From the NCBI GenBank assembly GCA_964394685.1, contig CAYMYO010000001.1, positions 64,040 to 128,039 on the forward strand: a stretch of 64,000 nucleotides of DNA. The letters are read 5' to 3'. The stretch's first letter is position 1; each line of letters begins with the position of its first letter. This document shows positions 15,678-61,970 of the stretch, in pieces. The position numbers and the translations under genes are program-made. Below the pieces are notes generated by a model. The model ran no database searches and was not told the DNA's origin. It worked only from the letters and a program-made list of their open reading frames with translations. Source of the DNA: an uncultured Gammaproteobacteria bacterium. GTDB taxonomy: Bacteria; Patescibacteriota; Microgenomatia; UBA10105; UBA927.

Positions 15678-17308
<1,631 letters not shown>

Positions 17309-17324
<16 letters not shown>

Positions 17325-18085
17325 TCCTGTCTGTCGCAATCGTAACTTTTAACGAAGAACAGAACATTGATGCTTGCTTATTATCAATCAGCCAACTGGC
17401 TGATGAAATAATCGTCGTTGATGGCGGATCGAGTGATACAACGTGTGAAATAGCAAAGAAATATAACGCAACAATTATCCACACAGATAATCCACAAATA
17501 TTTCATATTAATAAACAGAAGGCACTTGATGCGTGTCATGGGGAGTGGATTTTGCAGCTTGATGCAGATGAGGTGGTGACAGAAGAATTGAAGAAAGAGA
17601 TCCTGAATCCGCCAACTGGCGGACAGGATGACAAACATTATAACGGATACTATATTCCGCGGAAAAATTATTTTTGGGGTCATGTTATGAAGAAGGGCGG
17701 CCAATATCCCGATTATGTCATACGACTTATTCGTAACGGCAAAGCCCATTTCCCCTGTAAAAGTGTTCATGAACAAATTGAAGTTGATGGGACTGTTGGA
17801 TATTTGAAAGAACCAATGCTTCACTATTCATACAGAACAAAAGAAGACTATTGGAAAAAAGCAGATACCTATACGACGCTGAGGGCTCTATCTATGCAGG
17901 AAAATAACATCAAAAAAACGCTTGGTACATGGGTACGTTATAACATTATTCTTCCCATAAAAACTTTTTTTCTTTTATTTATCAGACATAAGGGGTTTAT
18001 TGATGGATGGTATGGACTGGTCTTTGCCTATTGGTCTGCGCTCCACTTCCCAATATCATATAAAAAATATCGTAAAATGCTATGA
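17309..18085 (+). CDS. Glycosyltransferase family 2
   Basis: The N-terminus is GT2-like (LSVAIVTFNEEQNIDACLLSI...VVDGGSSDTT), and the DADE motif appears in ILQLDADEVV. The gene overlaps the 3' end of 15678-17324. Confidence 0.8.
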
Positions 18086-18600
18086 AAAAAATAACTTCGG
18101 TTGTGATTTTATACATAATACTTTATACGTTATACCTTATACTTCCGCTTGCTGTACAAGCGGAATATGTTCTTCCCTATCCATCATCTATGCCGGGGAA
18201 TAAAATATATAAAATAACAAGATTAGTCGATTGGCTTAAGAATTATTGGTATTGGGGAGATATTGCGCAGGCGAAGTACCATCTCATGTTGTCGGATAAA
18301 TATCTTGTTGAAGCGAAAATACTTTTTGAATATAAACAATATTTATTGGGAGACGAAGCGCTTGTACGGTCTTCAAATGAGTGGCAGCAGATACAGCCGC
18401 ATCTCAATTTTGCAAAAAATCATAATAAAGATATTACGAAATTATTTATCCTCTATAAAGAAGCTGCACAGGTTCATGAAATAGTGTTGCGTTCATTTAT
18501 TGTTCCCGAATCAATACTGTGGAATCCTGAGAAAGGAACATCTACAAATTTATATTTAAAAGAAGATATCACGAAAGCGATTGAAATTCGTAAACAATAA
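18082..18600 (+). CDS. Hypothetical secreted protein (signal peptide)
   Basis: The start overlaps the upstream stop in ATGA fashion. The N-terminal hydrophobic stretch ITSVVILYIILYTLYLILPLAVQA has an AQA cleavage-like site. The mature part is hydrophilic and Tyr/Trp-rich. Confidence 0.5.
   Translation: MKKITSVVILYIILYTLYLILPLAVQAEYVLPYPSSMPGNKIYKITRLVDWLKNYWYWGDIAQAKYHLMLSDKYLVEAKILFEYKQYLLGDEALVRSSNEWQQIQPHLNFAKNHNKDITKLFILYKEAAQVHEIVLRSFIVPESILWNPEKGTSTNLYLKEDITKAIEIRKQ
18111..18145 (+). repeat. Heptad array R2: ATACATA ATACTTT ATACGTT ATACCTT ATACTTC (within signal-peptide coding region)
   Basis: Direct reading shows ATAC at a 7-nt period five times. The terminal ATACTTC unit is the same as in R1. 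Confidence 0.8.
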
Positions 18601-19753
18601 TATGAGGAGAATTGCATATCTGTATTACATTTTTATACTCGTATGTATCGTTGTTTTTTCTTATGGGTTTAAAGATCCGAATTTAACGTTAACAACCTCA
18701 CCGTTTCTTATTTCCATCACTCACCAACTCACGTACGTTGTGTATGTACTTCGCCCGTTAGCAACGCTCATTTTTTTAGGTATTCTTTTGAGTCTTTGGA
18801 GTTTTTATGCCATTGTATGTAGGTATGGAGAGAAATTATTTTCTAATTTAAAACATCTTGCGTTTATTATTATCGCATCAGCATTCATTCTTTCATTTTC
18901 TTATCCCGCGTTGACACATGATCTATTTAACTATATGACCACAGCCAAGGTAGCATTCACCCATGGAGAAAATCCATATGTTGTCATGCCGATTGAAATT
19001 CCAAATGAACCTTACCTAGCATTTACCAGGGCAGCTAATAAATATGCATTGTACGGGCCAATATAGATTGCCATAACTGCACTACCACACTACCTTGGTA
19101 ATAATAATATTTGGCAAACAATTATCATGTTTAAGTTATTAAATACATTTTTTTATCTTGTGTTTGTATATATGGTGTATCAGATAACAAAATCCTTGAA
19201 AAATACACTATTTTTCGCATTCAATCCGCTTATTCTTATCGAAACACTCGTTTCAGGTCATAACGATATTGTCATGATGGTATTAGCAGTGGCTGGACTT
19301 TATCTGTTTGAGCAAAAGAAAATATCGGAAAAAATAATTAGCATAATATTGTTATTTGCTAGTGTTTTGATAAAAGGAGCAACAATTGTCCTTTTACCGC
19401 TTCTGTTTGTAAGAAAATTTGACCGTGATCGCTTACTGCTTACTGCTTACTGCTTACTGTCCATCGTCTTTTTCATCGCAGCCCCCATTCGGGAAGAACT
19501 CTATCCTTGGTATGCAGTATGGCTTGTATGTATTGTGTCGTTTCTTCCAATCAAAAAGCATATGTGGCTGTACGGTTTTACAACAGTTCTAACTTTTGCA
19601 TTAGAGCTGCGGCATTTGCCATATATGTGGATGGGGTATTATGAAGGGCCGGGACCAGTACTTCGCACCATACTTACCGTTGTACCAGTTGGTATATATA
19701 TTGTTTATACCGGAATGCAATACCTATCAAAAAGACAAAATGAAAAAATTTAA
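18581..19753 (+). pseudogene. DUF2029/GPI-mannosyltransferase-like polytopic membrane protein interrupted by a single in-frame TAG (19064-19066)
   Basis: ORFs 18581-19066 and 19127-19753 are in the same frame, with 18581 = 19127 mod 3. They are separated only by TAG and read GPI*IAITALPHYLGNNNIWQTIIMFKLL across it. Both halves are hydrophobic, and their combined length of about 390 aa is typical for the family. Confidence 0.55.
19432..19459 (+). repeat. (CTTACTG)x4 perfect heptanucleotide tandem repeat inside CDS (encodes LLLTAYCLL)
   Basis: Direct reading shows four perfect copies. The TACT core relates it to the ATACTNN heptad family. Confidence 0.85.
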
Positions 19754-38973: not shown

Positions 38974-39948
38974 TTATTTTTGAGCCTGAACATATACCCA
39001 TTCCGTAGTAAATGAGGTGTTATCTGCAAGCGGATTTTTTTCTTTTAACTCATCAAAAAGCATATGTGAGGCCTGTATAATTATTTTATCTCTATCGCGT
39101 TCTTCTTCTGTAGTTGGATCTTTTCCCCCAATTTCCGGTAATATACCTGCCTGCAAACGTCTGACTCTTAAAAAGGATAGCCAATCTATATATAAAACTT
39201 TTATTTGTTTATAACTACTCTGTATATTTCTAAAACCGTTATCTTTTAGCGCATCTAGATAGTATCCGATTGGTCTTGGATCAGGAAAGACAAATTTTCT
39301 TTGTGAAAGTCCTTCCTGTAATCTTATAGTAATCCCTTTTTTATATTGTCTGTATTTTTTATCTGTTTTGATTATGGATATGCCAAAATCATGTACCCGA
39401 TGGACCGAATCATCAATCATTAAGAGATCTTTCTTTCTGTCTTTTCGTTTAATATTTCCGCTTTGAAATGTAAATATCCCTTCAGGTTTGAGTGCGCGAT
39501 AGATGCCCGCGAATGTCTCTGATATATTTGGAATGAGGTGTACTGTATTGGCGGCAATAACATGATGTGCTGTTTGTTCCCCAATGATTTCATCAAGTGT
39601 TTTATATCGTCCCTGATTTTTTTCTAATAACAAACAGGTAACTTGAGGATTTGTATGAAACAAGCCGTAAGCGTTACCTAGCCAAGATGGAGAATTATCA
39701 ACAAGAAATAGCGAAAATTTTTGAGTCATGTGCTGAAGAAGATATTCTGCTGAACTTCCTGTTCCTGCACCAAAATCAACAACGACATCATCAACCTTGA
39801 CCATTTTTTTAATCAGTCGGATTATTTCATAAATATTATCTATGTGCCAAGACGCTTTGATAACTGCGGCGTGGTACGCTAACGCACCTGAAGACGTTGG
39901 TTTACTTGGCTTCCAAGATGTGTATAAATGCGGTGATTGCTTTCTCAT
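38974..39948 (-). CDS. Class I SAM-dependent methyltransferase
   Basis: Motif I VVVDFGAGTGSSAEYL is present. The post-I acidic residue is in FLVDNS. The protein is 324 aa. Confidence 0.75.
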   Translation of the reverse strand: MRKQSPHLYTSWKPSKPTSSGALAYHAAVIKASWHIDNIYEIIRLIKKMVKVDDVVVDFGAGTGSSAEYLLQHMTQKFSLFLVDNSPSWLGNAYGLFHTNPQVTCLLLEKNQGRYKTLDEIIGEQTAHHVIAANTVHLIPNISETFAGIYRALKPEGIFTFQSGNIKRKDRKKDLLMIDDSVHRVHDFGISIIKTDKKYRQYKKGITIRLQEGLSQRKFVFPDPRPIGYYLDALKDNGFRNIQSSYKQIKVLYIDWLSFLRVRRLQAGILPEIGGKDPTTEEERDRDKIIIQASHMLFDELKEKNPLADNTSFTTEWVYVQAQK

Positions 39949-42848: not shown

Positions 42849-43964
42849 ATGCAAAAAAGACGAGTGTTTATTTTTATCGGTACCACTGCTGAACTAATTA
42901 AATTGGCACCGGTTATTCAGCAGTTAAATAAACGGAAAGTCAAATTTACGGTAATTGCTTCGCGACAAAACGATATTCGTTTTGATGAATTCCTTTCTAC
43001 CATCGGTAAGTTAGATATTATCTATGCAGTTACTCCAAAAAGCGCAGATTCTTCTATATTGCAATTTATTTCATGGGGAATACGAACATTCTTTTCGTTG
43101 TTGATAGGGTTGAAGCATCAGTTTAAAGGTTTGAATAAATTGAATTCATATTTCATTGTTCACGGAGATACTGTTTCCTCGCTTATGGGGTCTTTAGTTG
43201 CCAAAACATACGGATTGACTCTTGTTCACATTGAATCTGGTTTACGATCGTTTAATTTTTGGGAACCGTTTCCTGAAGAGATATGCAGATATATAGTGTC
43301 AAAACTTGCTGATATTCATTTTTGCCCTAATGAATGGTGTGTAAATAATTTGAAACATGTAAACGGAGAAAAAATAGATACAAAACAAAATACCCTAATA
43401 GAAACATTTTTGAGTGCTGTCAAAAACGAAAGTCATAATCCGGTGGTAGATAATATACAGAAACAACATAAAAAATATTATGTGCTTGTTGTACATAGAC
43501 AAGAACATATTTTTTTTGTAATTAAACAGATGCAACAAATTCTCTCATATATTTTTCGCTCTATCCCAAAAAATCTACAATGCATTTTTTTAGTTCATGA
43601 TCAATCAACGCAATTTATTACAGCATTAGATTTGATTATCCCTAAAGAAACTAAAGACAATATGATAAAAATTGGACGTTTACCGTATGGAGATTTTATT
43701 AAATTATTGCAAGGATCAGAGTTTGTCATTACAGATGGAGGAAGCAATCAAGAAGAATTATATTATATGGGAAAACCGTGCCTCATTCTTCGGAATTACA
43801 CAGAACGTATCGAAGGATTACAACGAAATGTTGTTTTAAGCAAATTACATATGCCTGTAATAAGACATTTTTTACATAATTATGTACAATATAAGAAACC
43901 TCCCATCAAGTTCACAAAGAAACCATCATCGATAATAGTAGATTATCTATATAAACAAATATGA
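42849..43964 (+). CDS. UDP-N-acetylglucosamine 2-epimerase (WecB/NeuC-family)
   Basis: The sequence IGTTAELIKLAPV corresponds to GTRPEAIKMAP. The sequence HGDTVSSLMGSLVAKTYGLTLVHIESGLRSFN...PFPEEICRYIVSKLADIHFCPNE parallels the WecB catalytic blocks. Confidence 0.8.
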   Translation: MQKRRVFIFIGTTAELIKLAPVIQQLNKRKVKFTVIASRQNDIRFDEFLSTIGKLDIIYAVTPKSADSSILQFISWGIRTFFSLLIGLKHQFKGLNKLNSYFIVHGDTVSSLMGSLVAKTYGLTLVHIESGLRSFNFWEPFPEEICRYIVSKLADIHFCPNEWCVNNLKHVNGEKIDTKQNTLIETFLSAVKNESHNPVVDNIQKQHKKYYVLVVHRQEHIFFVIKQMQQILSYIFRSIPKNLQCIFLVHDQSTQFITALDLIIPKETKDNMIKIGRLPYGDFIKLLQGSEFVITDGGSNQEELYYMGKPCLILRNYTERIEGLQRNVVLSKLHMPVIRHFLHNYVQYKKPPIKFTKKPSSIIVDYLYKQI

Positions 43965-46165: not shown

Positions 46166-48293
46166 TAAAACAATCAATTTTTCTATCTTGATTGCTTTAG
46201 GTATCGCATTAGTATTATTTGTTATACCATTTTTTTGGTTAAAGCCGGGATTTGTTGATATAGGAGGAGATAGCGGAAGGCTATACTTTATCGATCCGCT
46301 TTCATTGGTGCAAAACTTGTTTCAAAGAAGAAATTTTGATGGAGCGACAGCATATGCTATTCTTCCGTACTACATATTCTGCTATTTGATATTACGAGTA
46401 ACAGGCTTTTCAACTCTAACCATTGGAGTGGACAGAGGTATATTGCTATCTCTTGCTTTTGTATCAATATATTTGATAGTTAAACAATTATTGACAGTGA
46501 ACGAAAAAAATAAAATTCGCATTGTACTTGCTGCTATTACCAGCGGAATAGTTTATATAACATTGATAACAAAATTGGGATGGTTAGCTCAACTAGACAC
46601 ACATAATCAGATATTTCTCAATCCGTTGATTTTTTATCTATTATTACGATTTTGTACAACATCAAACCCATTATATGGATTGGGTATCATTATAATTTCT
46701 TTTATATATTCAGTGAACTTTAGTTTTACCGGAATGCCACAGGTTGCATCGTTTTACCCGCTTGCTATACTTTTTCTATTTATTATTCTTCGAATTATCT
46801 ATAAAGTAGCCATACCGTGGAAGAAATTATTTATTTTACTAATAGTACTTATTGGTGTCCATTCGTATCATCTTATACCTATTGCCGCGTCCATTTTTGA
46901 TAAAAGTAGTGTTACACATTCATATATATTTAATGAAGAAACGATTCTAGCTTCCGGTGTAAAATATTTTGAAGCAAACCATAAAGATCTTGGAAAAATA
47001 AGTTTAGAACTATTTCAACCATCAGAATGGTCTAGGAAAACTATATTTATTTTAATAATTCCAATAATTGTTCTACTCGGGTTTTTGAGAAAGCCTTCAC
47101 GATTGTTAGCTATTTTAAGCGTTTTTTTTGCAATTACCTTTTATTTAGTATCCGCAAATATCACTCACATTGGAATTTATATATATAAACACCTTTTTTA
47201 TATTCCCGGGTTTATGATGTTTCGATCGTTTCAGGAGAAATGGTATTACGTCTATTCCTTCTTTTTTGCATTATTATTTGCATGTTCCTTCTATTTATTA
47301 ATAAAACCCTTGAAGCGATTCGTTGCCATCGGTATTACTATTTTTGTTATTTGTCTATCGTTGTATCGGATATATCCATTTCTGCGGGGAGATGCTATTA
47401 AAGCTCCTTTATATCAATCAAATAATGTAACTTCAGTACTAAAGTTAGATCCGGACTTAATTTCAACACTTTCATTTATTAAAACCTTACCTCAAGATGG
47501 CAAAGTAACTATATTTCCTTTGACGTTTCCGTATTTTCAGTTGTTTTATGGTAAAGAGGGTGGTGCATATATGGGAATACCAACAGTATTTCCTATAACC
47601 GGCAGAACTGATTATGCTGGTTTTTGGACGTTTGGTCCATATAAAAAGCAAATCACCGATGCATTTATTAATAGAGATATTGATCGTTTGATTCAATATT
47701 TTTCGCGACTTAACATCCGATATATTTTTTATAACTCAGATGACCGTATTTATACAAACTTTCCGTCTTTTCCCTATGAATATCCCAAAGAAGGGATTCC
47801 ATCAATTAAAGACAAAGCATCGTACGATGCTCTTCTTGAATCCCTTCCTATTCATAAAATTTACGAAAAAGGATTTTATTCCCTGTATGAAATCGATAAA
47901 GACCTCATTCAACCGCTCATATATATCGAGGGTGATGAAACCGGATCATTAACATACAAAAAAATATCACCCGTTATTTATGATATATGGGTTCAAATGA
48001 ATGAGCGAAAAACGCCATTTGTTATTGTATTTTCTGAGCCGTATCAGAAAAGTTGGACAATAGATTTCCAAAACAACAAGGAGATAATAAAAGAGCATAT
48101 CATGATAAATAATTACGCTAACGGATGGGTTATCGATCCCACAAAAGCAAAAAGTTCTGTAATCCAAGGACGTATATATTTAAAGTTTCAAAACTATTTT
48201 TATATTGGAAGTTTGATTTCAGGGGTAGCGTTTATTGTTATTGCTGTTCTTTTTATTTTATATCTAATTAAAAAACGATATGCAAAGACCTAA
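46137..48293 (+). CDS. Giant polytopic membrane protein (GGD-SRLY family), putative GT-C glycosyltransferase
   Basis: The 718-aa protein has N-terminal GFVDIGGDSGRLYFIDPLSL and many TM helices, followed by a C-terminal extracytoplasmic domain and a terminal TM anchor. Paralogs lie at 50210 and 53459. Confidence 0.5.
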   Translation: MDLQKHMKSNKTINFSILIALGIALVLFVIPFFWLKPGFVDIGGDSGRLYFIDPLSLVQNLFQRRNFDGATAYAILPYYIFCYLILRVTGFSTLTIGVDRGILLSLAFVSIYLIVKQLLTVNEKNKIRIVLAAITSGIVYITLITKLGWLAQLDTHNQIFLNPLIFYLLLRFCTTSNPLYGLGIIIISFIYSVNFSFTGMPQVASFYPLAILFLFIILRIIYKVAIPWKKLFILLIVLIGVHSYHLIPIAASIFDKSSVTHSYIFNEETILASGVKYFEANHKDLGKISLELFQPSEWSRKTIFILIIPIIVLLGFLRKPSRLLAILSVFFAITFYLVSANITHIGIYIYKHLFYIPGFMMFRSFQEKWYYVYSFFFALLFACSFYLLIKPLKRFVAIGITIFVICLSLYRIYPFLRGDAIKAPLYQSNNVTSVLKLDPDLISTLSFIKTLPQDGKVTIFPLTFPYFQLFYGKEGGAYMGIPTVFPITGRTDYAGFWTFGPYKKQITDAFINRDIDRLIQYFSRLNIRYIFYNSDDRIYTNFPSFPYEYPKEGIPSIKDKASYDALLESLPIHKIYEKGFYSLYEIDKDLIQPLIYIEGDETGSLTYKKISPVIYDIWVQMNERKTPFVIVFSEPYQKSWTIDFQNNKEIIKEHIMINNYANGWVIDPTKAKSSVIQGRIYLKFQNYFYIGSLISGVAFIVIAVLFILYLIKKRYAKT

Positions 48294-50213: not shown

Positions 50214-52408
50214 AATGGAGACATGCATTACTGCTGTTTGTCCTGACAGCTTTATTTTTATTGCCTCAACTTTTCTGGGGGAAACTGTATATGGTTGGTG
50301 GAGATGACTCCAGGCTCTATTATTTATTCCCAAAACAATATCTGGAAAATTTCTCTTTAAAGGTTATTGCAAATAATACGCTTGGCGGAAATATGGGATA
50401 TTTCCCCGTCAGCTATTCAGCACCAATACTAGCGATAGCGACGGTATTTCAGTATATATTTCCATGGTTAAATATACAGTTTTTTATGTACGGAATAATT
50501 CTCATGTTTGGTTTTTTATTCATGCATCTTCTCTTGCAAGAGCTCATACCAAGTTTTTCAGTCATTGGGTATGTCTCTTCTATCATTGCAGCTTTATATT
50601 ACGTCTTTTCCCCCTTTATCCTTAAAACGTTTATGCAACATCAATTGATAGCTATCTTTATGCTCATGGTGTTGCCTGGATGCTTATATCTTTTTGTGAA
50701 AGGAATGAAAAAAAGAAGCTATAAATATATTCTCTTGTCCTCTTTGTTGTATTCAGTATTTAGCGCAACGTTATTAAGTGCACCTTGGTTTCTTGCAACG
50801 GTATTTATTCTTTTTCCATTACTGCTTTTTATCGTTTTTCAGTATAGAGATTTCTTCTGGAAAGCAAGTATTGTTCTTTTCATATCGTTTTTTTTTCTTA
50901 ATTTTTATTGGATCATTCATCAAGTAATCCCAATTGTATATCCAACAGGAGAGGTGAGTGTGACGTCAACGAATTCGACTCTTCAGGTAAAAGCGGCGAA
51001 TAACTACCTCATTGAAGCATTGACTCATTTGAATAGTCCTGTTTATCAAATGATAGGAACTGTAAGAACGTCGTGGTCTGATCGGGAAGGTCCGACGCTT
51101 GCTCAGTCAATAGGGGTTATTTATCTGTTTGTCATTCTACTGGCTGGAACCAGAATACATTTGGTAAGTAGAAGTCTTTATAAATATTATTGTGTCGGTT
51201 TGTCCGGATTATTATTCGCGATGCTATTTTTTACTCCGAATTTTGGGGAATGGAATTTACGTCTTTTTCAATTCTTAAATAATTATGTACCGTTGTTCGG
51301 AATGTTTCGCAATACGTACGATAAATTCGCTTTAGCAATGTCATTTCATTATTCGTTTGTTCTTTATGTCTCATTATGCGTATTAGAAAGAACGAAAACG
51401 AAAGTACTGTTTAAATATATCGGTCTTGTCATTATTGTTGGCGCCATGTTTTTTACTGCTTACCCGTACCTATTTCCAAAATTTAATGATAAAGAGTATT
51501 CGAATAGAATAACCGGTTCTTTGAATAAAGAGTTTTTTCAGCTAATTGGGTATTTAAAAAGTAATCCCACTTCCTCTCGTTATGTTTGGTTGCCTATGAC
51601 GTACCCTGGATATGTATTTATTAAAGAAGAAGGCGAAGGCAATCATTACTATGCAGGATTATCGCCCTTACAGGTTTTAGCGCAATCTAGCGATATTGCA
51701 GGTTATTATGGAATTCAAACGTCAACAAACCCAGATCTTAATTCTAAAGTTAGGATGCTGCTTCGAATAAAGGATTATGATGCTATCGGGCGAATATTTC
51801 AAAAACAGAATATAGGTTATGTTATCGTAAATAATGAAAAGCTGCCAAAAAAGGCATTAGAATTCTTAGATTCATATCCGTTTATGAGTGATCAGAACGA
51901 CGAATATAAAAATGTTATTTTAGGTGACAAGCTCCAAGATTTTGGTACTCGTTATGTTTTATATCGAATCAATCAAAAATATTATACAAACACGGTTTTT
52001 TTTACAAAAGACATCGGAGACTATCCAATAGCAGATGAAACTATTTCTTATACATACAAAAAAGTACGTTCTGGTTTATATAAAGTGACAATTGTGGGAA
52101 TAACAAAACCCTTAAAGTTAGTTTTAGCGGAGCCATATAACCGTCTTTGGAAACTACAGCTTGCTAATTCCAACAATTTGGTTAAGCTACCAATAGAAAA
52201 TGTTAAAGCTTATGATTTTGGTAACGGCTGGGAAATCGATCCTTATACATTAAAGACCAAATATCCAGAATATGTTATCGGGGAAGCTGATGGTTCAATT
52301 AGCTTAAAACTACACATACAATTTTTACCGGATTTGGTTACAAAACCAGCGCTTATTATAAGCCTTGGTTGTCTTATTTTTATATTAGTTTTATTATTTT
52401 TACCATGA
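50210..52408 (+). CDS. Giant polytopic membrane protein (paralog of 46137-48293)
   Basis: The 732-aa protein has N-terminal LYMVGGDDSRLYYLFPKQYL and the same TM, extracytoplasmic domain and terminal TM architecture as its paralogs. Confidence 0.5.
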   Translation: MKWRHALLLFVLTALFLLPQLFWGKLYMVGGDDSRLYYLFPKQYLENFSLKVIANNTLGGNMGYFPVSYSAPILAIATVFQYIFPWLNIQFFMYGIILMFGFLFMHLLLQELIPSFSVIGYVSSIIAALYYVFSPFILKTFMQHQLIAIFMLMVLPGCLYLFVKGMKKRSYKYILLSSLLYSVFSATLLSAPWFLATVFILFPLLLFIVFQYRDFFWKASIVLFISFFFLNFYWIIHQVIPIVYPTGEVSVTSTNSTLQVKAANNYLIEALTHLNSPVYQMIGTVRTSWSDREGPTLAQSIGVIYLFVILLAGTRIHLVSRSLYKYYCVGLSGLLFAMLFFTPNFGEWNLRLFQFLNNYVPLFGMFRNTYDKFALAMSFHYSFVLYVSLCVLERTKTKVLFKYIGLVIIVGAMFFTAYPYLFPKFNDKEYSNRITGSLNKEFFQLIGYLKSNPTSSRYVWLPMTYPGYVFIKEEGEGNHYYAGLSPLQVLAQSSDIAGYYGIQTSTNPDLNSKVRMLLRIKDYDAIGRIFQKQNIGYVIVNNEKLPKKALEFLDSYPFMSDQNDEYKNVILGDKLQDFGTRYVLYRINQKYYTNTVFFTKDIGDYPIADETISYTYKKVRSGLYKVTIVGITKPLKLVLAEPYNRLWKLQLANSNNLVKLPIENVKAYDFGNGWEIDPYTLKTKYPEYVIGEADGSISLKLHIQFLPDLVTKPALIISLGCLIFILVLLFLP

Positions 52409-53454
52409 TGAAATCTTTGAAGAAAATAGTGACAATAATGGTACTATTTATTTCCAGTATATTGCTTTCTCTGTTTTGGTATCGAGACGTTTATATTACG
52501 GCTATTCAAGAATTACATAAAGAAACACTTACGACTGAATTTACAGAAAAGCCACTTCTAAAAGAAGATACACTTCACTTTGAAATTACGGCAAAACATG
52601 ATAACTTTGGCATTCTAAAATTACGACCAAAAACATTTAATCGATTTAATTACGACATAATTCATTTTCGATTACGTGAAAAGGAAACCGAAACCTGGAG
52701 CGTTAACAACGCATACGTTGTTGACGTATTTAAAGATAAATTATTCTATCCCTTGGGTTTTCCGGTCATTCCAAATTCGAAGGGAAAAACATATGAAATC
52801 GAGATAACTTCTGAAAAAGGGAGCATTATAGATTCAATCGGTTTTTATGGTGGGCATAATTCGATAGCTACGCAATATGTTTATTTAAGGGAAAATATTA
52901 TTTTTAATAACTCATTGCTAACTTCATTTGTAATAGCAAAGAGTATTAGTTTAATGAAAGACCCATATTTTGTTTTGTTCTATTTATTATTCCTGCTACC
53001 CATTTTGTATTTTTTTACAAAAAGCCCTAGAACGAGAAAGCATAGATATTTTATTATTGAAATATGTATTATTTTATATTTGTATTTTGTATATATTTTT
53101 CTTCCCGTGGATTTTGATTCAAACGTTATTATTTATGTTGTTTCTGTTACATTTCTAATTGCTATCAATTATTATTATCCAGTTTTAAAAAATTTATTTG
53201 TGGGACATAAGTTCTATCCAGTTTCAAAAAATTTATTTGTTGGACATAAGTTCTATCCAGTTTCAAAAAATTTATTTGTTGGACATAAGTTCTCTTCATC
53301 ATATGTTTATCTATTCGCAATCATATTATTATTATATCTTTTAATAAATATCGCCTTAAACAGAGTACTTGAATCAACTAGGCTAGCCTTAGCGGTATTC
53401 TATACAATTGTATTAGCCTTGGGTGTTTCCTATGTAGAATTTAAAAATAAATAA
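52405..53454 (+). CDS. Membrane protein with internal 13-aa x3 tandem repeat
   Basis: It has an N-terminal TM segment, a soluble domain, C-terminal TM helices, and the repeat PV(L/S)KNLFVGHKFY x3. The MMKSLKK start at 52405 overlaps the upstream TGA. Confidence 0.5.
   Translation: MMKSLKKIVTIMVLFISSILLSLFWYRDVYITAIQELHKETLTTEFTEKPLLKEDTLHFEITAKHDNFGILKLRPKTFNRFNYDIIHFRLREKETETWSVNNAYVVDVFKDKLFYPLGFPVIPNSKGKTYEIEITSEKGSIIDSIGFYGGHNSIATQYVYLRENIIFNNSLLTSFVIAKSISLMKDPYFVLFYLLFLLPILYFFTKSPRTRKHRYFIIEICIILYLYFVYIFLPVDFDSNVIIYVVSVTFLIAINYYYPVLKNLFVGHKFYPVSKNLFVGHKFYPVSKNLFVGHKFSSSYVYLFAIILLLYLLINIALNRVLESTRLALAVFYTIVLALGVSYVEFKNK
53179..53295 (+). repeat. 39-bp x3 near-perfect coding tandem repeat (CCAGTTTCAAAAAATTTATTTGTTGGACATAAGTTCTAT)
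   Basis: Direct reading shows that copies 2 and 3 differ at 1 nt and copy 1 at 3 nt. The unit is in frame at 13 aa. Confidence 0.85.
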
Positions 53455-53458
53455 GTAT

Positions 53459-55090
53459 ATGAATTGGTATTTATCATCAGGAGATTTAGATTTTTTTTGG
53501 AAAGAACAAATTCAGCATCTCTCGTGGATTCCGAACGTCTTTAGAACAGATGTCGGATTCGGATGGTCAGGTATTATGAGTTTGTGGCTCGATTATCCGT
53601 TCCGTCTCGTTTTGAAACTGCTGTCAGCAATAGGATTATCATGGTTCTTTATCGAAAAACTTTTGTGGATGGCGGTATTTATTATCGCTGCATATTCGTC
53701 TTATTGTTTAGCTAAATATATATTGAAATCACGTCTATCTTCTTGGCTAGCAAGTTTCATCTATATAGCAAATACGTATTTTTTACTTCTGTTTAGCGGG
53801 GGGCAACTCGGGGTCGCGCTTGCGTACGCATTTGCACCGTTTGTGTTATTTCGCTTTATCGAATCTCTCGATACAAAAAAGCCAACAATAAAAAAAGCGA
53901 TTACCAATGGATTATGGTTGACTCTTCTTATTATTTTTGATCTGCGCCTTGCGTATTTGGCGTTTGGAGTAATTTTCCTTTATCAAATAATTTCAAGAAG
54001 GTTTCATATACGCTCAACGAGCATTTCCGTACTTGTGGCGATGGCAGTTCATGCATTTTGGATATTGCCGACTATTATGACGCAGACCGGTCCTTCAGTT
54101 ATGGGAGAGGATTTTACAAATCCCGGTATGCTTCGGTTTTTAAGTTTTGCGGACTTTTCCCATACTATTTCACTTCTTCACCCCAATTGGCCGGAGAATC
54201 TTTTTGGAAAGGTATATTTTTTGCAGCCGGAATTTCTTCTTATTCCGCTCGTAGCATTTTGTTCTCTACTATTTATTACACAAGCAAAAAATAAAAAGCA
54301 CATACTATTTTTGGGACTATTAGTTCTTATCGGAGCGTTTTTTGCAAAAGGAACGCAGCCTCCGTTTGGAGGAATATTTACTTGGTGTTTTCAACATATT
54401 CCCGGGTTTATAATGTTCCGCGATCCAACAAAATTCTACATGTTGACTGCTATTGGATATTCTGTTCTTATTCCATTTACTCTTTCGAAGATAAATAAAT
54501 ATTTTGTATATGCGTTATTTGGGGTATTTTGGCTTATTTTACTTCGAGCAGTTGCTACTGGCGAGGTTAAAGGAAATTTTCAACCAATACAACTTCCGCA
54601 GGAATATGTTCAGTTAAAAGATCAATTAGTTCAAGATACAAAATCATCCCGAACGCTCTGGATACCGAACAAAGAAAATTTCGCATATTATTCCGATATT
54701 CATCCAGTGTTGCAAATGAATCAGTTGTTTAAAGATATGTCACTGTCAGAACTGGCGACTGTCGCAACAAGTTCTGCATTTCTTGAAACGCTAAATAACG
54801 CCGGAGTGAAATATGTGATTGTTCCGATGAATATCGAAGGAAAAATATTCATGCGGGATTACAAATATAATAACGATTTACGAATGTCAATTGTTAATGC
54901 ATTAAAAAGTACTCCATTAAAACAAAACGCTAATTATGTAGATATCGCTGTTTTTGAAAATCCGCAATTTCAGGATATGAAAATTACGGTTCCTGACATA
55001 GTCCAAACGCAACAGTATTATGCAAATGTTGGCGTACTTATCAGTGTTGTTGTTTTTATTGTGATAGTTATTTTTATTGTATGGTTTTGA
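53459..55090 (+). CDS. Large polytopic membrane protein (shorter paralog of 46137/50210 family)
   Basis: The 543-aa protein has the N-terminus MNWYLSSGDLDFFWKEQIQHLSW. Its TM topology and C-terminal soluble domain plus terminal TM anchor match the paralogs. Confidence 0.45.
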   Translation: MNWYLSSGDLDFFWKEQIQHLSWIPNVFRTDVGFGWSGIMSLWLDYPFRLVLKLLSAIGLSWFFIEKLLWMAVFIIAAYSSYCLAKYILKSRLSSWLASFIYIANTYFLLLFSGGQLGVALAYAFAPFVLFRFIESLDTKKPTIKKAITNGLWLTLLIIFDLRLAYLAFGVIFLYQIISRRFHIRSTSISVLVAMAVHAFWILPTIMTQTGPSVMGEDFTNPGMLRFLSFADFSHTISLLHPNWPENLFGKVYFLQPEFLLIPLVAFCSLLFITQAKNKKHILFLGLLVLIGAFFAKGTQPPFGGIFTWCFQHIPGFIMFRDPTKFYMLTAIGYSVLIPFTLSKINKYFVYALFGVFWLILLRAVATGEVKGNFQPIQLPQEYVQLKDQLVQDTKSSRTLWIPNKENFAYYSDIHPVLQMNQLFKDMSLSELATVATSSAFLETLNNAGVKYVIVPMNIEGKIFMRDYKYNNDLRMSIVNALKSTPLKQNANYVDIAVFENPQFQDMKITVPDIVQTQQYYANVGVLISVVVFIVIVIFIVWF

Positions 55091-58571: not shown

Positions 58572-58780
58572 AACTTCAGGATGTCGGATTTTTTATTGTG
58601 TTAGCTATACTTCTTATTGTTCGTAAGCCAATCTGGTTTGTGTACACGGGGCTTTTATGTTTTGCACTCGCAATTCCATTATTTGCCCAGTGGGTATTTT
58701 TCACCGGAGAGCGGCTTGTTTGGTATGGAGCAGGATTTATATTTGTGAGTATAATACTATATATAGTCAAAAAGGAATAA
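58568..58780 (+). CDS. Small 2-TM membrane protein (70 aa)
   Basis: The start overlaps the upstream stop in ATGA fashion. Two clear hydrophobic helices are present. Confidence 0.45.
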   Translation: MKLQDVGFFIVLAILLIVRKPIWFVYTGLLCFALAIPLFAQWVFFTGERLVWYGAGFIFVSIILYIVKKE

Positions 58781-58784
58781 ATAT

Positions 58785-59765
58785 ATGAAATTCTTAATTA
58801 CCGGTGGTGTTGGATATATCGGGTCACTAACAAATGCATTCATTCAATCTCAAGGACACGAGACAGTTGTTTTTGACAGCCTAGTCAATGGTCATCGGGA
58901 ATCTGTTGGAAAAACACCGCTTATTGTTGGAGATTTATGTAATAAAGATGAAATAGATGCAGTGTTTCAGGATGAACGATTTGATGCGGTGATCCACTTT
59001 GCTGCGTTTGCTCTTGCCGGCGAATCCATGGAACGGCCATATGACTATTTAAGAAATAATATCAATGGAACGTTAAATCTTCTGGATTCAATGCATAAAT
59101 ATGATTGCAAAACACTCATATTTTCCTCAACATGTGCAATTTATGGATTCCCAAAATCACTTCCTGTGACCGAAGAGTCACCTATCAGTCCAATGTCTAT
59201 TTATGCTCAGTCCAAACGGTCGTGTGAAGAAATAATAGATTGGTATGAGGAGTTATATGGTATTAAGAACGCAAAACTTCGGTATTTTAATGCTTGTGGA
59301 GACATGCCGGATGGATCTTTGGGTGAAGATCATGCACCGGAAACACACATTATTCCTGTTGCGCTTCAAGCAGCGATTACTGGAAAGCCGTTTTTTGTGT
59401 TTGGAAAAGACTACAAAACATCGGATGGAACATGTATTCGAGATTATATTCACGTACTTGATCTTGCTGATGCGCATTTAAAAGCAGTGTCTTCAATACT
59501 TAAAACTAAAGAATCATTGACAGTTAATTTAGGGGTAGGGAAAGGGTATTCAAATTTGGAAGTACTAAAAGCTGTTGAGAAGGTCACAGGAAAAACGCTT
59601 GATATTCAATATAAAGAGAGACGTGCTGGTGATCCGGATGCCATATATGCAGATAACGCGAAGGCAAAGACAATACTCGGATGGGAACCACAGTATACAA
59701 CCATTGAATCGATCATCGAAACCGCGTGGGCGTGGCACTCAAAGCACCCAAACGGGTATAAATAG
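58785..59765 (+). CDS. galE: UDP-glucose 4-epimerase
   Basis: The sequence KFLITGGVGYIGS is present, and the catalytic YAQSK (Y-x3-K) is in SIYAQSKRS. The C-terminal PDGSLGEDHAPETHIIPV and GTCIRDYIHVLDLADAH blocks are typical of GalE. Confidence 0.85.
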   Translation: MKFLITGGVGYIGSLTNAFIQSQGHETVVFDSLVNGHRESVGKTPLIVGDLCNKDEIDAVFQDERFDAVIHFAAFALAGESMERPYDYLRNNINGTLNLLDSMHKYDCKTLIFSSTCAIYGFPKSLPVTEESPISPMSIYAQSKRSCEEIIDWYEELYGIKNAKLRYFNACGDMPDGSLGEDHAPETHIIPVALQAAITGKPFFVFGKDYKTSDGTCIRDYIHVLDLADAHLKAVSSILKTKESLTVNLGVGKGYSNLEVLKAVEKVTGKTLDIQYKERRAGDPDAIYADNAKAKTILGWEPQYTTIESIIETAWAWHSKHPNGYK

Positions 59766-59800
59766 TATCAAGTATAAAGTATTAAGTATTACGTATAAAA
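59763..59800 (-). repeat. Heptad array R4 (GTAT every 7 nt on + strand; reverse-complement = ATACGTA ATACTTA ATACTTT ATACTTG ATACTAT)
   Basis: Direct reading shows AGTATCAAGTATAAAGTATTAAGTATTACGTATAAA immediately after the galE stop. It is inverted relative to R3. Confidence 0.8.
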
Positions 59801-59807
59801 AACGAAT

Positions 59808-60185
59808 TCAACCGTGGGATGCTGCACTTTTAATTAATCCGTTGATAAGTTTATGAACCTGAACGGTTTGTTGAGCAATAGATTGAAAAAGTTCACTTTT
59901 GAGATATCCCAAGTCTCTTGCTATAACAAGTTGATTTTGTATTTCTGTTGTTGATCCAAGCGCCATGTAATAAAATTGAACCTTATCTTTTCTTGTTCTT
60001 CTGGAAAATCCTTCTGCAATATTACTCGTTATTGATACCGAAGCACGCTGCATTTGGTTAGTAAGAGAATATGTTTGATGATGAGGAAATTCAAAAGTTA
60101 TTTTATAAATGTTAAGAACAAGTGCGTGCCCTTCTTTCCATGCGGTAAGATCTGTAAACGATTGAATTTTTGTTACATTACTCAT
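59808..60185 (-). CDS. Four-helix-bundle protein (23S rRNA intervening-sequence protein family, PF05635-like)
   Basis: The sequence FTDLTAWKEGHALVLNIYKITFEFPHHQTYSLTNQMQRASVSITSNIAEGFSRRTRKDKVQFYYMALGSTTEIQNQLVIARDLGYL matches the family consensus (W..a..l.l.iY.....FP..E.ygL.sQ.rRaavSI..NIAEG..R....). The ATG at 60185 is preferred over the track's upstream TTG. Confidence 0.8.
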   Translation of the reverse strand: MSNVTKIQSFTDLTAWKEGHALVLNIYKITFEFPHHQTYSLTNQMQRASVSITSNIAEGFSRRTRKDKVQFYYMALGSTTEIQNQLVIARDLGYLKSELFQSIAQQTVQVHKLINGLIKSAASHG

Positions 60186-60747
60186 TGTAGCCAGGATAGA
60201 TAACAATACATTTATCTTTTGAAATGTGAAGTTTTTCAACAACGTCCTTTTTTGTTGCTTCGGAATCGCACAAAAATAAAGAACACTCCTTTTTTGCGTA
60301 ATTCAGTCGTCTTTCTTGAACTGATTTTATGATTTCAGGAAAACTATCTGGATGGATAAGAAAGCTGACGTCGTGAATAGTTGTCATTCCAATGGTTTTT
60401 TTTGGGATAGGCGGTTGTGTCCAGTCGCTTGACCAAAAAATATCAAGCGGACCAGTAAACCAAGTAATTGGAATAATGTGGAGTGTATTCCAAAGAATAT
60501 CTAAGATCGTTGGTGGAATTGGTGTGTAGACCAATCGCACATTTTTACTTATTTTTTTGAGTTTTTCGCTAAATTCTTGTAATTTTTTCTGTTGTCGTAG
60601 AGTTGCGCCAAAAAGAACATACGTGTTGCCCGGGGCAAATTTGATCATTGCTTCTGTCATCTGTTCGACATACCGGGAAACACCGGTTCCGGTGAAAACT
60701 ATTTGGCTGATGTCAATGCCGATGGTCATATCTGTAGTATATCTCAT
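60178..60747 (-). pseudogene. GT4 glycosyltransferase, N-terminal (Glyco_trans_4) domain only, truncated before the donor-binding domain
   Basis: It is GT4 N-domain-like (IGIDISQIVFTGTGVSRYVEQ...TIHDVSFLIHPDSFP...ATKKDVVEKLHI...VIYPGYNE) and then stops. The downstream sequence encodes an unrelated four-helix-bundle protein, so no EX7E C-domain is present. Confidence 0.6.
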
Positions 60748-60749
60748 CC

Positions 60750-60784
60750 ATACTTTATACTTAATACCTAATACATTATACTCA
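60750..60784 (+). repeat. Heptad array R3: ATACTTT ATACTTA ATACCTA ATACATT ATACTCA, filling the 41-bp divergent gap
   Basis: Direct reading shows ATAC at 60750, 60757, 60764, 60771 and 60778. The minus-strand reading contains a perfect TATAAT. Confidence 0.85.
60750..60784. promoter_or_regulatory. Candidate bidirectional promoter formed by heptad array (-10-like TATACT on +; TATAAT on -)
   Basis: This is the only non-coding sequence between divergent start codons at 60747(-) and 60789(+). The hexamers arise at heptad junctions. This is inference only. Confidence 0.3.
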
Positions 60785-60788
60785 AGCT

Positions 60789-61970
60789 ATGGTTATTGCT
60801 ATTGATGGCTATGAAGCAAATGTTGAAAATCGAGTAGGTATCGGCCGGTATGCGTATGAAATACTAAAGCATATATACAAAATACGATATACAAAATACG
60901 ATATACAAAATACCAATTTCCGTATTTACCTCCCGGAGAAGCCACTGCCGGATATGCCCAAAGAAACAGCGTGGTGGACATACCATATTGTGAAACCAAA
61001 GAAATTATGGACCTTTATTGGATTTCCATTAGCTCTTTTCAGGGATACGCCCAAAGCTGACGTAGTGTTTTCTCCCACGCACTATATTCCTCGGTTTGTC
61101 ACTACTCCTCGTGTTATGTCCATCATGGATTTGTCGTATTTATCGTTTCCAGAGTTATTTAAAGCGAAAGATCTTCACCAATTAGTTCATTGGACACGAT
61201 ATGCAGCTAGTCATGCAAAACTTATCTTCACAATCAGCGAATTTAGTAGAAATGCTATAATTAAGGCATACCGGGTGAACCCGAAACATGTCGTTGTGAC
61301 CTACCCGGGACTGACGGAAAAAGTATCAAGTATCAAGTATCCCCGCCTGCCGGACGGGCAGGAAGTATCAAGTATGGAAATTACAAAAAAATACGCAATT
61401 GCAAAGCATTATATCCTCTCAGTAGGCACAATTCAGCCACGAAAAAATTATGAACGCTTAATTGAAGCATTTGCACTGTTTTTGCAAAAAAACAAGCAGA
61501 AATTTGGAACGATTGACCTCGTGATTGTAGGCAAAAAAGGGTGGCTGTATGATGAAATTCTTCATGCTCCAAAGCGATATGGCGTGGAAAAGCTGGTAAA
61601 ATTCTTGGATTTTGTGCCTGATAATGATTTACCGGCTCTTTACAAGAATGCATTGTGTTTTGCACTTCCCAGCCTCTATGAAGGGTTCGGATTACCGGTT
61701 CTTGAGGCTATGGCACAAGGATGTCCTGTCGTTGTCAGCAATAGCTCTAGTCTTCCTGAGATAGCAGGCGACGCTGGAGTTTATGTAAATCCAGCTAGTG
61801 TTGAAAGTATTGCGAGCGGGCTTTTAACAGCAGTTCGACAAAGAAACCTGATGCAAGGGAAAATTCGTGTAAAAAAAGGACTTGAGCAAGTTTCGAAATT
61901 CTCATGGGATAAAGCAGCGAAAGAGACAATAGATCTTCTCGAACGTGTAGGGAAAGGAACATTGATATGA
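60789..61970 (+). CDS. Glycosyltransferase family 4 (contains two in-frame heptad arrays)
   Basis: The N-terminus [25 protein letters not shown] is GT4-like, and the EX7E block [30 protein letters not shown] is present. Confidence 0.85.
60875..60916 (+). repeat. Heptad array R6: (ATACAAA ATACGAT)x2 ATACAAA ATACCAA, 42 bp in-frame within GT4 (encodes [14 protein letters not shown])
   Basis: Direct reading shows ATAC at a 7-nt period six times. Confidence 0.8.
61323..61378 (+). repeat. Heptad array R5 (GTATCAA GTATCAA GTATCCC | GC-rich hairpin | GTATCAA GTATGGA), 56 bp in-frame within GT4
   Basis: Direct reading shows the 7-nt phase conserved across the GC-rich insert CCCGCCTGCCGGACGGGCAGG. 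That insert has a 6-bp stem CCTGCC/GGCAGG and a 5-nt loop. The array encodes [18 protein letters not shown]. Confidence 0.8.

Follow-up and report, generated by a model that had tools for sequence, protein, structure and literature searches.

The locus and its two minus-strand genes

Within the 64-kb stretch of contig CAYMYO010000001.1 analysed here (hereafter the window), two short minus-strand genes stand between inverted arrays of heptamer repeats. One encodes a four-helix-bundle (4HB) protein of the S23p family, or 23S rRNA intervening-sequence (IVS) protein family, and the other a short protein resembling the N-terminal domain of a GT4 glycosyltransferase (GT4-N). Together with their arrays they form what is called the cassette below. 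The window has a G+C content of 32-40%, and nearly all of its genes belong to glycan or envelope biosynthesis (PMT_2, YfhO, GT2, GT4, DegT, epimerases, acetyltransferases). The closest loci, denoted by L numbers like the other loci compared, come from Patescibacteria labelled Gottesmanbacteria, Woesebacteria and similar. The cassette and its flanks are composed as follows.

58785-59765, plus strand: GalE, UDP-glucose 4-epimerase-like; by synteny, the conserved left flank of the cassette slot
59764-59799, plus strand: array R4, GTATnnn x5 (AGTATCA AGTATAA AGTATTA AGTATTA CGTATAA); distal cassette end
59808-60185, minus strand: 4HB gene, 125 aa; S23p / 23S rRNA intervening-sequence protein family (PF05635, E=2.5e-35)
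60178-60747, minus strand: GT4-N, short and GT4 N-domain-like (PF13439); 189 aa from the ATG at 60747, more likely 183 aa from the ATG at 60729
60750-60784, minus strand (GTATnnn read on minus): array R3 (ATACTTT ATACTTA ATACCTA ATACATT ATACTCA); proximal cassette end
60775-60782, both strands: -10-like hexamers in R3, TATACT on plus (60777-60782) and TATAAT on minus (60780-60775); consensus matches only
60789-61970, plus strand: full-length GT4 glycosyltransferase; by synteny, the conserved right flank of the cassette slot

The membership of the 4HB gene in the rRNA IVS family, already proposed in a first-pass annotation of this DNA, was confirmed by the Pfam match, by a score of 117 bits against TIGR02436 (cut-off 24) and by similarity to PDB entry 2GSC (E=1.6e-20); the protein has a pI of 9.6. 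An overlap of 8 nt (ATGAGTAA) joins its ATG to the stop codon of GT4-N, the gene upstream, so that the two minus-strand genes can be read as one translationally coupled unit. GT4-N had been described as a truncated GT4, which did not hold. Orthologues have 181-200 aa and a stop codon of their own (L001-L011, L016, L081-L106), relative to which the gene is full length, and it was found as a standalone gene between GalE and the full GT4 in all of more than 45 related Patescibacteria loci (e.g. L016, L005). The interpretation as a truncated pseudogene was rejected on these grounds, the orthologues being equally short, conserved and closed by their own stop codon.

Both arrays were recovered by Tandem Repeats Finder with a period of 7, R4 with 5.1 copies of consensus AGTATAA (59764-59799) and R3 with 4.7 copies of ATACTTA (60750-60782). 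They form an inverted repeat, with a complementarity of 82% over 33 nt and 90% over 29 nt, and bracket the two minus-strand genes exactly, as first annotated. The stop codons of GalE (59765) and 4HB (59808) face each other across a convergent gap of 42 bp, which R4 occupies; R3 takes up the entire 41-bp divergent gap between the minus-strand ATG at 60747 and the plus-strand ATG at 60789. On the minus-strand transcript, R3 is the 5' arm and R4 the 3' arm (AUACnnn). The window contains 17 occurrences of the motif GTAT-N3-GTAT-N3-GTAT, compared with 0.47 expected, a count reached in 0 of 100 shuffles. R3 and R4 are not each other's closest arrays: their identity is 0.84, compared with 0.85-0.92 to the window arrays at 16316 and 18108, which are as near or nearer. 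The block they enclose is also not strictly the only one on the minus strand between 38 and 64 kb, as had been supposed, since a minus-strand methyltransferase gene lies at 38974-39948.

Copy number in the arrays is stable. R3 is identical in the window, L081, L082 and L107, and R4 has five copies in both the window and L081, with substitutions only. Slipped-strand phase variation, in the manner of a simple-sequence contingency locus, was therefore rejected for R3 and R4, whose near-identical sequences show no change in copy number. The 41-bp gap with R3 (60748-60788) is 100% identical between the window and L081/L082, next to a GT4 protein that is 78% identical, which suggests either constraint or recent co-transfer with the cassette. 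As for promoters, -10-like hexamers are present in R3 in both directions, as had been noted, and the plus-strand TATACT lies 6 nt ahead of the full GT4 ATG; they are consensus matches only, no more numerous than expected from shuffled sequence. Promoter-like matches overall likewise fell within the shuffle range, and an intrinsic terminator was not found.

Recombinases, whose presence nearby the first-pass annotation had raised, are missing, along with transposases and reverse transcriptases, from the ~57 open reading frames (ORFs) of the 64-kb window searched with Pfam. No tRNA was found in the window, and no rRNA or other Rfam family in 58.5-62 kb, where a permissive threshold gave one chance miRNA match. 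Exact-sequence look-ups returned nothing for GT4-N (189-aa form) or the full GT4, and run-level contigs for the 4HB protein.

The GalE-GT4 interval in related genomes

Loci were collected with two anchors, the full GT4 for species-representative genomes and GT4-N for metagenomes, and neighbouring genes were placed by tblastn. Most loci, including basal ones, are in a state (A) in which GalE, GT4-N and the full GT4 are co-directional and tightly spaced, without a 4HB gene and without GTAT arrays; the 4HB gene is a lineage-specific addition at this locus. In L083 and L087, the addition is seen without inversion, in the order GalE, GTATnnn array, GT4-N, 4HB, ATACnnn array and full GT4. The array-bounded unit of GT4-N and 4HB is inverted (state B) in the window, L081/L082, L107/L108 and L109-L111, and GT4-N alone, without 4HB, is inverted in L084-L086, L089, L091 and L092. 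Thus, relatives include many loci without the 4HB gene, both orientations of the unit, and an intact GT4-N throughout. The 4HB proteins of the inverted units are 93% and 75% identical to that of the window and cluster together, whereas those of the co-directional units are more distant (65%), so that a single inversion suffices for the 4HB-bearing units. Neighbour-joining trees were too rough, and too confounded by allele exchange, for inversions to be counted, and the claim is accordingly restricted to at least one inversion of the 4HB-bearing unit.

Exchange of the cassette between conserved flanks is visible in several pairs of loci. Between the window and L081, a block at 59841-60860 has 92-98% DNA identity, compared with 50-88% for GalE and the remaining GT4. 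It takes in the 4HB gene, GT4-N, R3 and 70 nt at the start of the full GT4, and its edges are R4 and a further array within the GT4 coding sequence (60873-60913). In L016, which has no 4HB gene, GalE and the downstream hexapeptide-repeat transferase are 93-95% identical to the window at the protein level, and GT4-N is 61% identical. L084 and L109 have near-identical flanks around wholly different cassettes, one with and one without 4HB, with sharp boundaries at the outer array edges. From the two orientations and the alternative alleles between conserved flanks, it follows that both inversion and cassette exchange at the array boundaries have occurred. As far as sequence comparison goes, this surface-glycan operon has a slot for cassettes in its GalE-GT4 interval, and the suggestion of a discrete module bounded by inverted arrays was borne out.

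The GalE-GT4-N junction is an insertion hot spot in relatives. Two genes with Fic motifs (HPFxDGNGR) lie there in L016 (5813-8034), an aminotransferase plus, on the opposite strand, a hexapeptide/cupin sugar-modifying gene in L005 (7262-9438), and inserts of 1.4-1.6 kb in L091 and L096. Other tandem short units were observed in the same gaps of relatives, namely GTTAATn x4, AATCGTCCAAT x3, ATCTTATATA x3, AAGAGTT x3 and ACGAGTA x4 (L001 8811-8838, L002 ~9320-9370, L016 5838-5870, and the GalE side of L084/L086/L089); these genomes seem generally prone to short tandem repeats beside gene ends.

The arrangement in the source population was followed in Logan contigs of two sequencing runs, SRR13723393 and SRR13723394, which match window positions 59108-61342 and 58643-60457, respectively, at 100% identity as single colinear blocks. 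Mis-assembly does not account for it, since two independent run-level assemblies reproduce the arrangement across both arrays. These assemblies contain only the orientation of the window, minority variants being of a kind that would not be assembled. The same orientation recurs in L081/L082 (90% GT4-N identity) and L109-L111 (75% 4HB identity), and it appears fixed in this lineage. Altogether, the block is a real, discrete and swappable module that was inverted in the course of evolution, and its inversion and swapping look like evolutionary events rather than a demonstrated switch.

4HB genes and heptamer arrays at other sites

Inverted heptamer arrays clearly flank 4HB genes in 14 of 19 independent contexts from four phyla. 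In other Patescibacteria, 4HB homologues with 60-75% identity lie between thyA and folA (three lineages), upstream of an RNase J-like gene, downstream of lexA and beside an AAA+ gene. At all of these sites, two to five GTATnnn units touch the ATG and three to nine ATACnnn units follow from the stop codon. The same layout, with a different heptamer, was found in the Woesebacteria locus L060, whose 4HB protein is 38% identical: GTGAnnn stands upstream and nnnTCAC downstream, and two more TCACnnn arrays lie within 21 kb of the gene.

A tblastn search of plasmids gave 39 records, mostly from Nostocales, with Riemerella and Azospirillum. Herein, 4HB genes were found between co-directional genes (e.g. 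cas10|cmr3, cas6|cas4) with inverted period-7 arrays around them, built from GGGTGTA, CAGGAGT, GGTTTAA, AGGAGAT, GGGAAAA or CAGAGGA. Two 4HB paralogues of one Nostoc strain carry different heptamers (L134 and L135). On plasmid pNPUN01 of N. punctiforme (L147), a gene nearby contains the heptamer that also flanks the 4HB gene. The same plasmid also carries inverted GGCAGGA/CTGCCTC arrays 133 nt apart with no gene between them (46631-46658 and 46792-46819), a heptamer family also present at the flanks of 4HB genes on plasmids of PCC 7120 and Stanieria, and a TATCAGT array (43829-43856) that contains the reverse complement of the TAACTGA heptamer described for Beggiatoaceae and cyanobacteria. Co-directional 4HB insertions in conserved operons were seen repeatedly (L112-L121, L144, L132, L133, L140), at thyA|folA, at accB|accC and, on cyanobacterial plasmids, at cas10|cmr3, at cas6|cas4 and upstream of cas4. 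The presence of 4HB genes in cas operons may explain earlier reports of 23S_rRNA_IVP as 'CRISPR-associated'.

The heptamer GGGAATC has been reported to be enriched genome-wide in Xanthomonas (PMC4692102). If 4HB genes carry the heptamer of their own genome, the S23p gene of Xanthomonas (XCC0516 family, PDB 2GSC) should be flanked by GGGAATC, and this prediction was confirmed. At accB|accC, the upstream array reads GGGAATC GGGAGTG GAGAATC GGGAATC and the downstream inverted array CCCATTC CCCATTC TCGACTC CCTATTC.

The flanks of 4HB units were compared with those of 211 control ORFs (120 aa or longer) taken from 15 Patescibacteria loci, using the duplex energy between upstream and downstream flanks and the period-7 autocorrelation. 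Control flanks had a duplex energy of -16.3 +/- 5.9 kcal/mol, the most extreme 'controls' being 4HB genes themselves. The 4HB units ranged from -12 to -58 kcal/mol, 17 of the 25 lying no higher than roughly the 6th percentile of controls, and the window unit (-37.6 kcal/mol) was more negative than all 211 control ORFs. Autocorrelation was mostly 0.40-0.88 for 4HB units, compared with 0.32 +/- 0.09 for controls. On these sequence comparisons, the arrays belong to the 4HB gene and not to this locus. Being the usual flanks of 4HB genes and dispersed elsewhere as well, they do not have service as recombination targets of a local switch, as first proposed, for their primary identity.

Arrays also occur alone, within coding sequences of the window:

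16316-16349, minus strand: perfect array ATACTTT x4.9, in the coding sequence of a PTPS_related membrane protein (15678-17324)
18108-18144, minus strand: ATACnnn x5, encoding the hydrophobic, signal/transmembrane-like N-terminus (ILYIILYTLYLIL) of the ORF at 18082-18600
60873-60913, minus strand: in the full GT4 coding sequence, a 14-bp unit x2.9 with ATAC every 7 nt; absent from L081 and L016
61321-61377, plus strand: two AAGTATC arrays (x3 and x2), 21 nt apart, forming a ~15-aa in-frame insertion in the GT4 interdomain linker; absent from all relatives

The arrays at 16316-16349 and 18108-18144 are in frame, so that the repeat doubles as coding sequence for a hydrophobic peptide. The array at 60873-60913 closes the 92-98% identical window-L081 block on its right and rewrites a hypervariable GT4 loop. 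Identity to L081 is lowest at both arrays within the GT4 gene, which are also points at which assemblies break: position 61342 is the end of L107, and the closest metagenome-assembled genome splits the gene across contigs L016 and L012. In L081, a palindromic array pair (11625-11697) makes a 22-aa in-frame insertion in the orthologue of the gene at 53459-55090, which lacks it in the window. Taken with the occurrences in coding and leader sequences, such in-frame insertions absent from orthologues indicate that the arrays behave as insertable units.

Further arrays were seen in two Moraniibacteria-type genomes. In L019 (4494-4567), a hairpin of GTATnnn x5 and ATACnnn x5 with a GAATTC loop lies just ahead of a T-box-like motif (GGTGGTACCACGCGG) in the ileS leader, and in the related L017 an array lies inside the ileS coding sequence (5414-5445). 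Two other tandem repeats of the window are a 39-bp unit x3.0 (97% matches) at 53176-53293, in the ORF at 52369-53454, and a different heptamer, GCTTACT x4.1, at 19431-19459, in the ORF at 19127-19753.

Interpretation and significance

The segment is best explained, with a probability of about 70%, as an S23p (PF05635/TIGR02436) 4HB cassette of the IVS type, seated in a protein-coding glycan operon of a Gottesmanbacteria-like member of the Patescibacteria and ending in inverted GTATnnn arrays. Judged from its reading frames, the cassette also holds a conserved host gene, the short GT4-N, in translational coupling with 4HB. The model for this kind of element is the IVS carried by the 23S rRNA gene of Coxiella burnetii, described as a selfish element with an S23p ORF, whose 28-bp terminal inverted repeats form a stem cut by RNase III, with cleavage at the first repeat, and which carries two to three tandem copies of GACAGAT and one degenerate copy directly upstream of the ATG (PMC4990558). 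Similar to the IVS of Coxiella and Leptospira (PMC4990558), the cassette has a PF05635 ORF within stem-forming terminal inverted repeats and tandem heptamers at its 5' end (GTATnnn x5 here, GACAGAT x2-3 in Coxiella). Also shared are a sporadic, horizontally acquired distribution and co-directional insertion in a highly transcribed unit. The cassette differs in lying outside rRNA, between the protein-coding genes GalE and GT4 of a glycan operon, in being antisense to that operon in this genome, in its extra host gene GT4-N, and in that both of its arms are full heptamer arrays; excision by RNase III would apply to it by analogy only. ORFs of the 23S_rRNA_IVP type have also been reported in rRNA insertions of candidate phyla radiation (CPR) bacteria (bioRxiv 10.1101/2024.02.27.582315).

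At the RNA level, predicted folds pair the 5' and 3' arms in 12 of 12 elements, with stems of 11-43 pairs. For the minus-strand transcript of the window, the predicted minimum-free-energy fold pairs the arms over 38 bp with a duplex energy of -38.8 kcal/mol, and in the transcript the arms would thus enclose the cassette in a stem of ~38 bp. If this stem were cut by RNase III as in the rRNA IVS, the cassette RNA would be uncoupled from the operon RNA. At the DNA level, the inverted arms may have served as the substrate of one or more inversions and as breakpoints of allele exchange. Rare general recombination or template switching would be a more plausible route than a dedicated invertase, in view of the missing recombinase and of an orientation that is stable from 100% down to 75% identity. 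The basic 4HB protein, as a pentamer, probably recognises its cognate arrays, a proposal based on the conserved 4-nt core with free positions 5-7, on the lineage-specific cores and on the basic character of 4HB proteins (median pI 9.6).

Several observations weigh against this explanation. The arrays of L133 are direct rather than inverted, and in four of the 19 contexts arrays are incomplete, weak or missing, among them L130/L136 (one context), with an array at one side only, L140, which is weak, and L141, which has none. State-B loci without 4HB show no clear inverted GTAT pairs, which means that present-day arrays are not strictly needed for inversion. The predicted stem is A/U-rich and long-range (~950 nt), and a fold prediction would join any two arrays in inverted orientation. 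The 5' array of a canonical cassette adjoins the ATG of the 4HB gene; that of the present cassette stands upstream of GT4-N, a capture of the host gene for which the explanation does not account. Finally, co-inheritance by itself would make heptamer and protein co-vary, so that their co-variation is no proof of binding. Insertion of 4HB genes into the loop of pre-existing palindromic array pairs, which would make the arrays a target and not a component of the element, was also considered as a possible alternative; it would fit cassettes that hold 4HB only and does not fit an ancestral GT4-N inside the arms.

Comparison with other repeat systems places the cassette among several partial parallels. 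Heptamer repeats of bacteria, such as the short tandemly repeated repetitive (STRR) sequences of cyanobacteria, are tandem 7-nt units in ~4-5 copies, mostly intergenic and within ~50 bp of gene ends, between co-directional ORFs, transcribed, lineage-specific and of unknown function (PMC4679880, PMC4692102). TAACTGA heptamers are abundant in Beggiatoaceae, cyanobacteria and Bacteroidetes (PMC4679880), and lineage-specific heptamers of unknown function include GGGAATC in Xanthomonas and GGGGAYT in Nostoc (PMC4692102). The arrays described here differ in being tied to a 4HB gene; neither PMC4679880 nor PMC4692102 mentions S23p or four-helix-bundle genes. The resemblance to diversity-generating retroelements (DGRs) lies in the homologous basic four-helix-bundle fold that the 4HB protein shares with Avd (weak PF22296 match). 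A DGR/Avd identity was rejected, the NCBIfam Avd model giving 20 bits against a cut-off of 80 and the window having no reverse transcriptase; no template/variable repeat pair was noticed in the window, though no search was aimed at such repeats.

Rickettsia palindromic elements are short palindromic repeats that sit in frame in protein genes and add peptide segments. The in-frame additions found here (+22 aa in the L081 orthologue, +15 aa in the GT4 of the window) resemble them; the tandem-heptamer structure and the associated protein-coding master copy set the present arrays apart. In REPIN-RAYT systems, a REP-associated tyrosine transposase is flanked by cognate repetitive extragenic palindromic (REP) sequences. 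Shared traits are a small gene between inverted copies of a dispersed repeat, co-variation of the repeat with the gene lineage, and palindromic doublets without a gene. In contrast to RAYTs, the 4HB fold lacks HUH/Y1 (IS200/IS605-type) transposase motifs, and the repeats are tandem heptamer arrays instead of the imperfect palindromes of 20-30 nt found in REPIN-RAYT systems.

The REPIN-RAYT parallel leads to the strongest competing explanation, which overlaps with the IVS-type cassette and is a real possibility that we nevertheless do not favour: the arrays would be DNA- or RNA-binding sites of the 4HB protein, the 4HB gene would be the 'master' of a genome-wide array family whose arrays its protein maintains, spreads or uses for regulation, and inversion would arise as a side effect. 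Heptamer cores follow the lineage of the 4HB gene (GTAT, GTGA, GGGTGTA, CAGGAGT, GGTTTAA, GGGAATC, others), even between the two Nostoc paralogues (L134 vs L135), and dispersed copies of the heptamer lie in the same genome in the case of the window, L060, pNPUN01 and Xanthomonas (PMC4692102). Conservation of a 4-nt core beside variable positions 5-7 points to a recognition motif under selection rather than to homogenisation by slippage. Moreover, this is a basic protein whose relatives assemble into pentameric toroids (PMC4990558). Against this, a four-helix bundle has no known catalytic site, the S23p protein of Coxiella is seemingly not made (PMC4990558), and the same co-variation would be expected if gene and arms simply moved together.

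A programmed switch, in which a site-specific recombinase flips the 1-kb segment through the arrays and thereby toggles GT4-N and 4HB or the neighbouring GT4, is improbable. Invertons such as fimS, hin and the capsular-polysaccharide promoters of Bacteroides offer the closest precedent, with inverted repeats around a short segment, surface-glycan loci, a typical context of phase variation, and both orientations in nature. The inverted repeats stand exactly at the boundaries, the -10-like hexamers in R3 face both ways, and both orientations do occur among related genomes (co-directional in L083 and L087), which is the part of the original switch proposal that stood. Its other part found no support: no recombinase was found in 64 kb, and no heterogeneity was seen in the run assemblies. 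Orientation is the same in the window, both run assemblies, L081/L082 and L109-L111, and one inversion suffices for the 4HB-bearing units. Furthermore, whole genes rather than a promoter lie inside, and the repeats belong to a family found genome-wide. In essential operons (thyA-folA, accB-accC), such arrays stand on either side of 4HB genes that do not invert, and the arms of the present unit, imperfect and AT-rich, resemble each other no more closely than they do other arrays of the window.

Still less credence is given to the arrays being ordinary simple-sequence repeats or duplicated -10 boxes (TATACT), produced by slippage in AT-rich intergenic DNA and bracketing the genes incidentally. 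The heptamer does contain TATACT/TATAAT-like hexamers, TATACT lies 6-10 nt before the full GT4 ATG in many relatives, the intergenic gaps of relatives hold other short tandem units, and heptamers are generally over-represented in bacteria (PMC4679880, PMC4692102). Such an origin leaves the inverted array at the 4HB stop codon unaccounted for and is at odds with G/C-rich, non-promoter heptamers in the same layout in other phyla, with the statistical excess over the 211 control ORFs and with the lack of copy-number variation in R3 and R4. Tandem -10 boxes for leaderless mRNAs, locally possible, fail likewise for arrays at stop codons and for the G/C-rich heptamers of other phyla. A spurious contig inversion can be set aside almost entirely: inverted repeats can mislead assemblers and contigs of relatives do break at arrays (L012/L016; L107 at 61342), but the two independent run-level assemblies are 100% identical and colinear across both arrays, the arms (~35 bp, imperfect) are shorter than typical final k-mers, and the state is the same in five more contigs, which come from other samples.

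As an IVS-type cassette, the element is of a kind already known from rRNA genes. What is new relative to the literature searched is that it occurs in protein-coding operons together with a captured host gene, that ends made of heptamer arrays are general, and that they match genome-wide heptamer families. Only the Coxiella account (PMC4990558) was found to tie PF05635 to heptamer arrays, in a search that covered subscription journals thinly, so that an earlier description is possible. The regularity that emerges is that 4HB genes stand between inverted heptamer arrays, that the heptamer tracks the protein lineage and that it is dispersed in the host genome; it yielded one correct prediction, GGGAATC in Xanthomonas. 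It extends the concept of the rRNA intervening sequence to protein-coding operons, including thyA-folA, accB-accC, cas operons and glycan loci. For the Patescibacteria, it reveals a hot spot at which a surface-glycan operon swaps and flips a small cassette, and it shows how coding sequences can be remodelled in frame by repeat arrays.

To our knowledge, the S23p four-helix-bundle family has solved structures (2GSC, 2RLD) and no known function. More speculatively, and with the odds against it, S23p/TIGR02436 proteins could be the trans-acting partners of lineage-specific tandem heptamer arrays (GTATnnn, GGGAATC, possibly those of the Nostocales STRR type), each 4HB gene being a master element between its own arrays and its protein binding and propagating or exploiting them. 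If this were true, arrays could land in operons, rRNA genes and coding sequences alike, and rRNA intervening sequences, the orphan S23p family and the excess of heptamer repeats would share one explanation. Two old puzzles, the function of S23p and the over-represented lineage-specific heptamer repeats, would thereby become directly testable.

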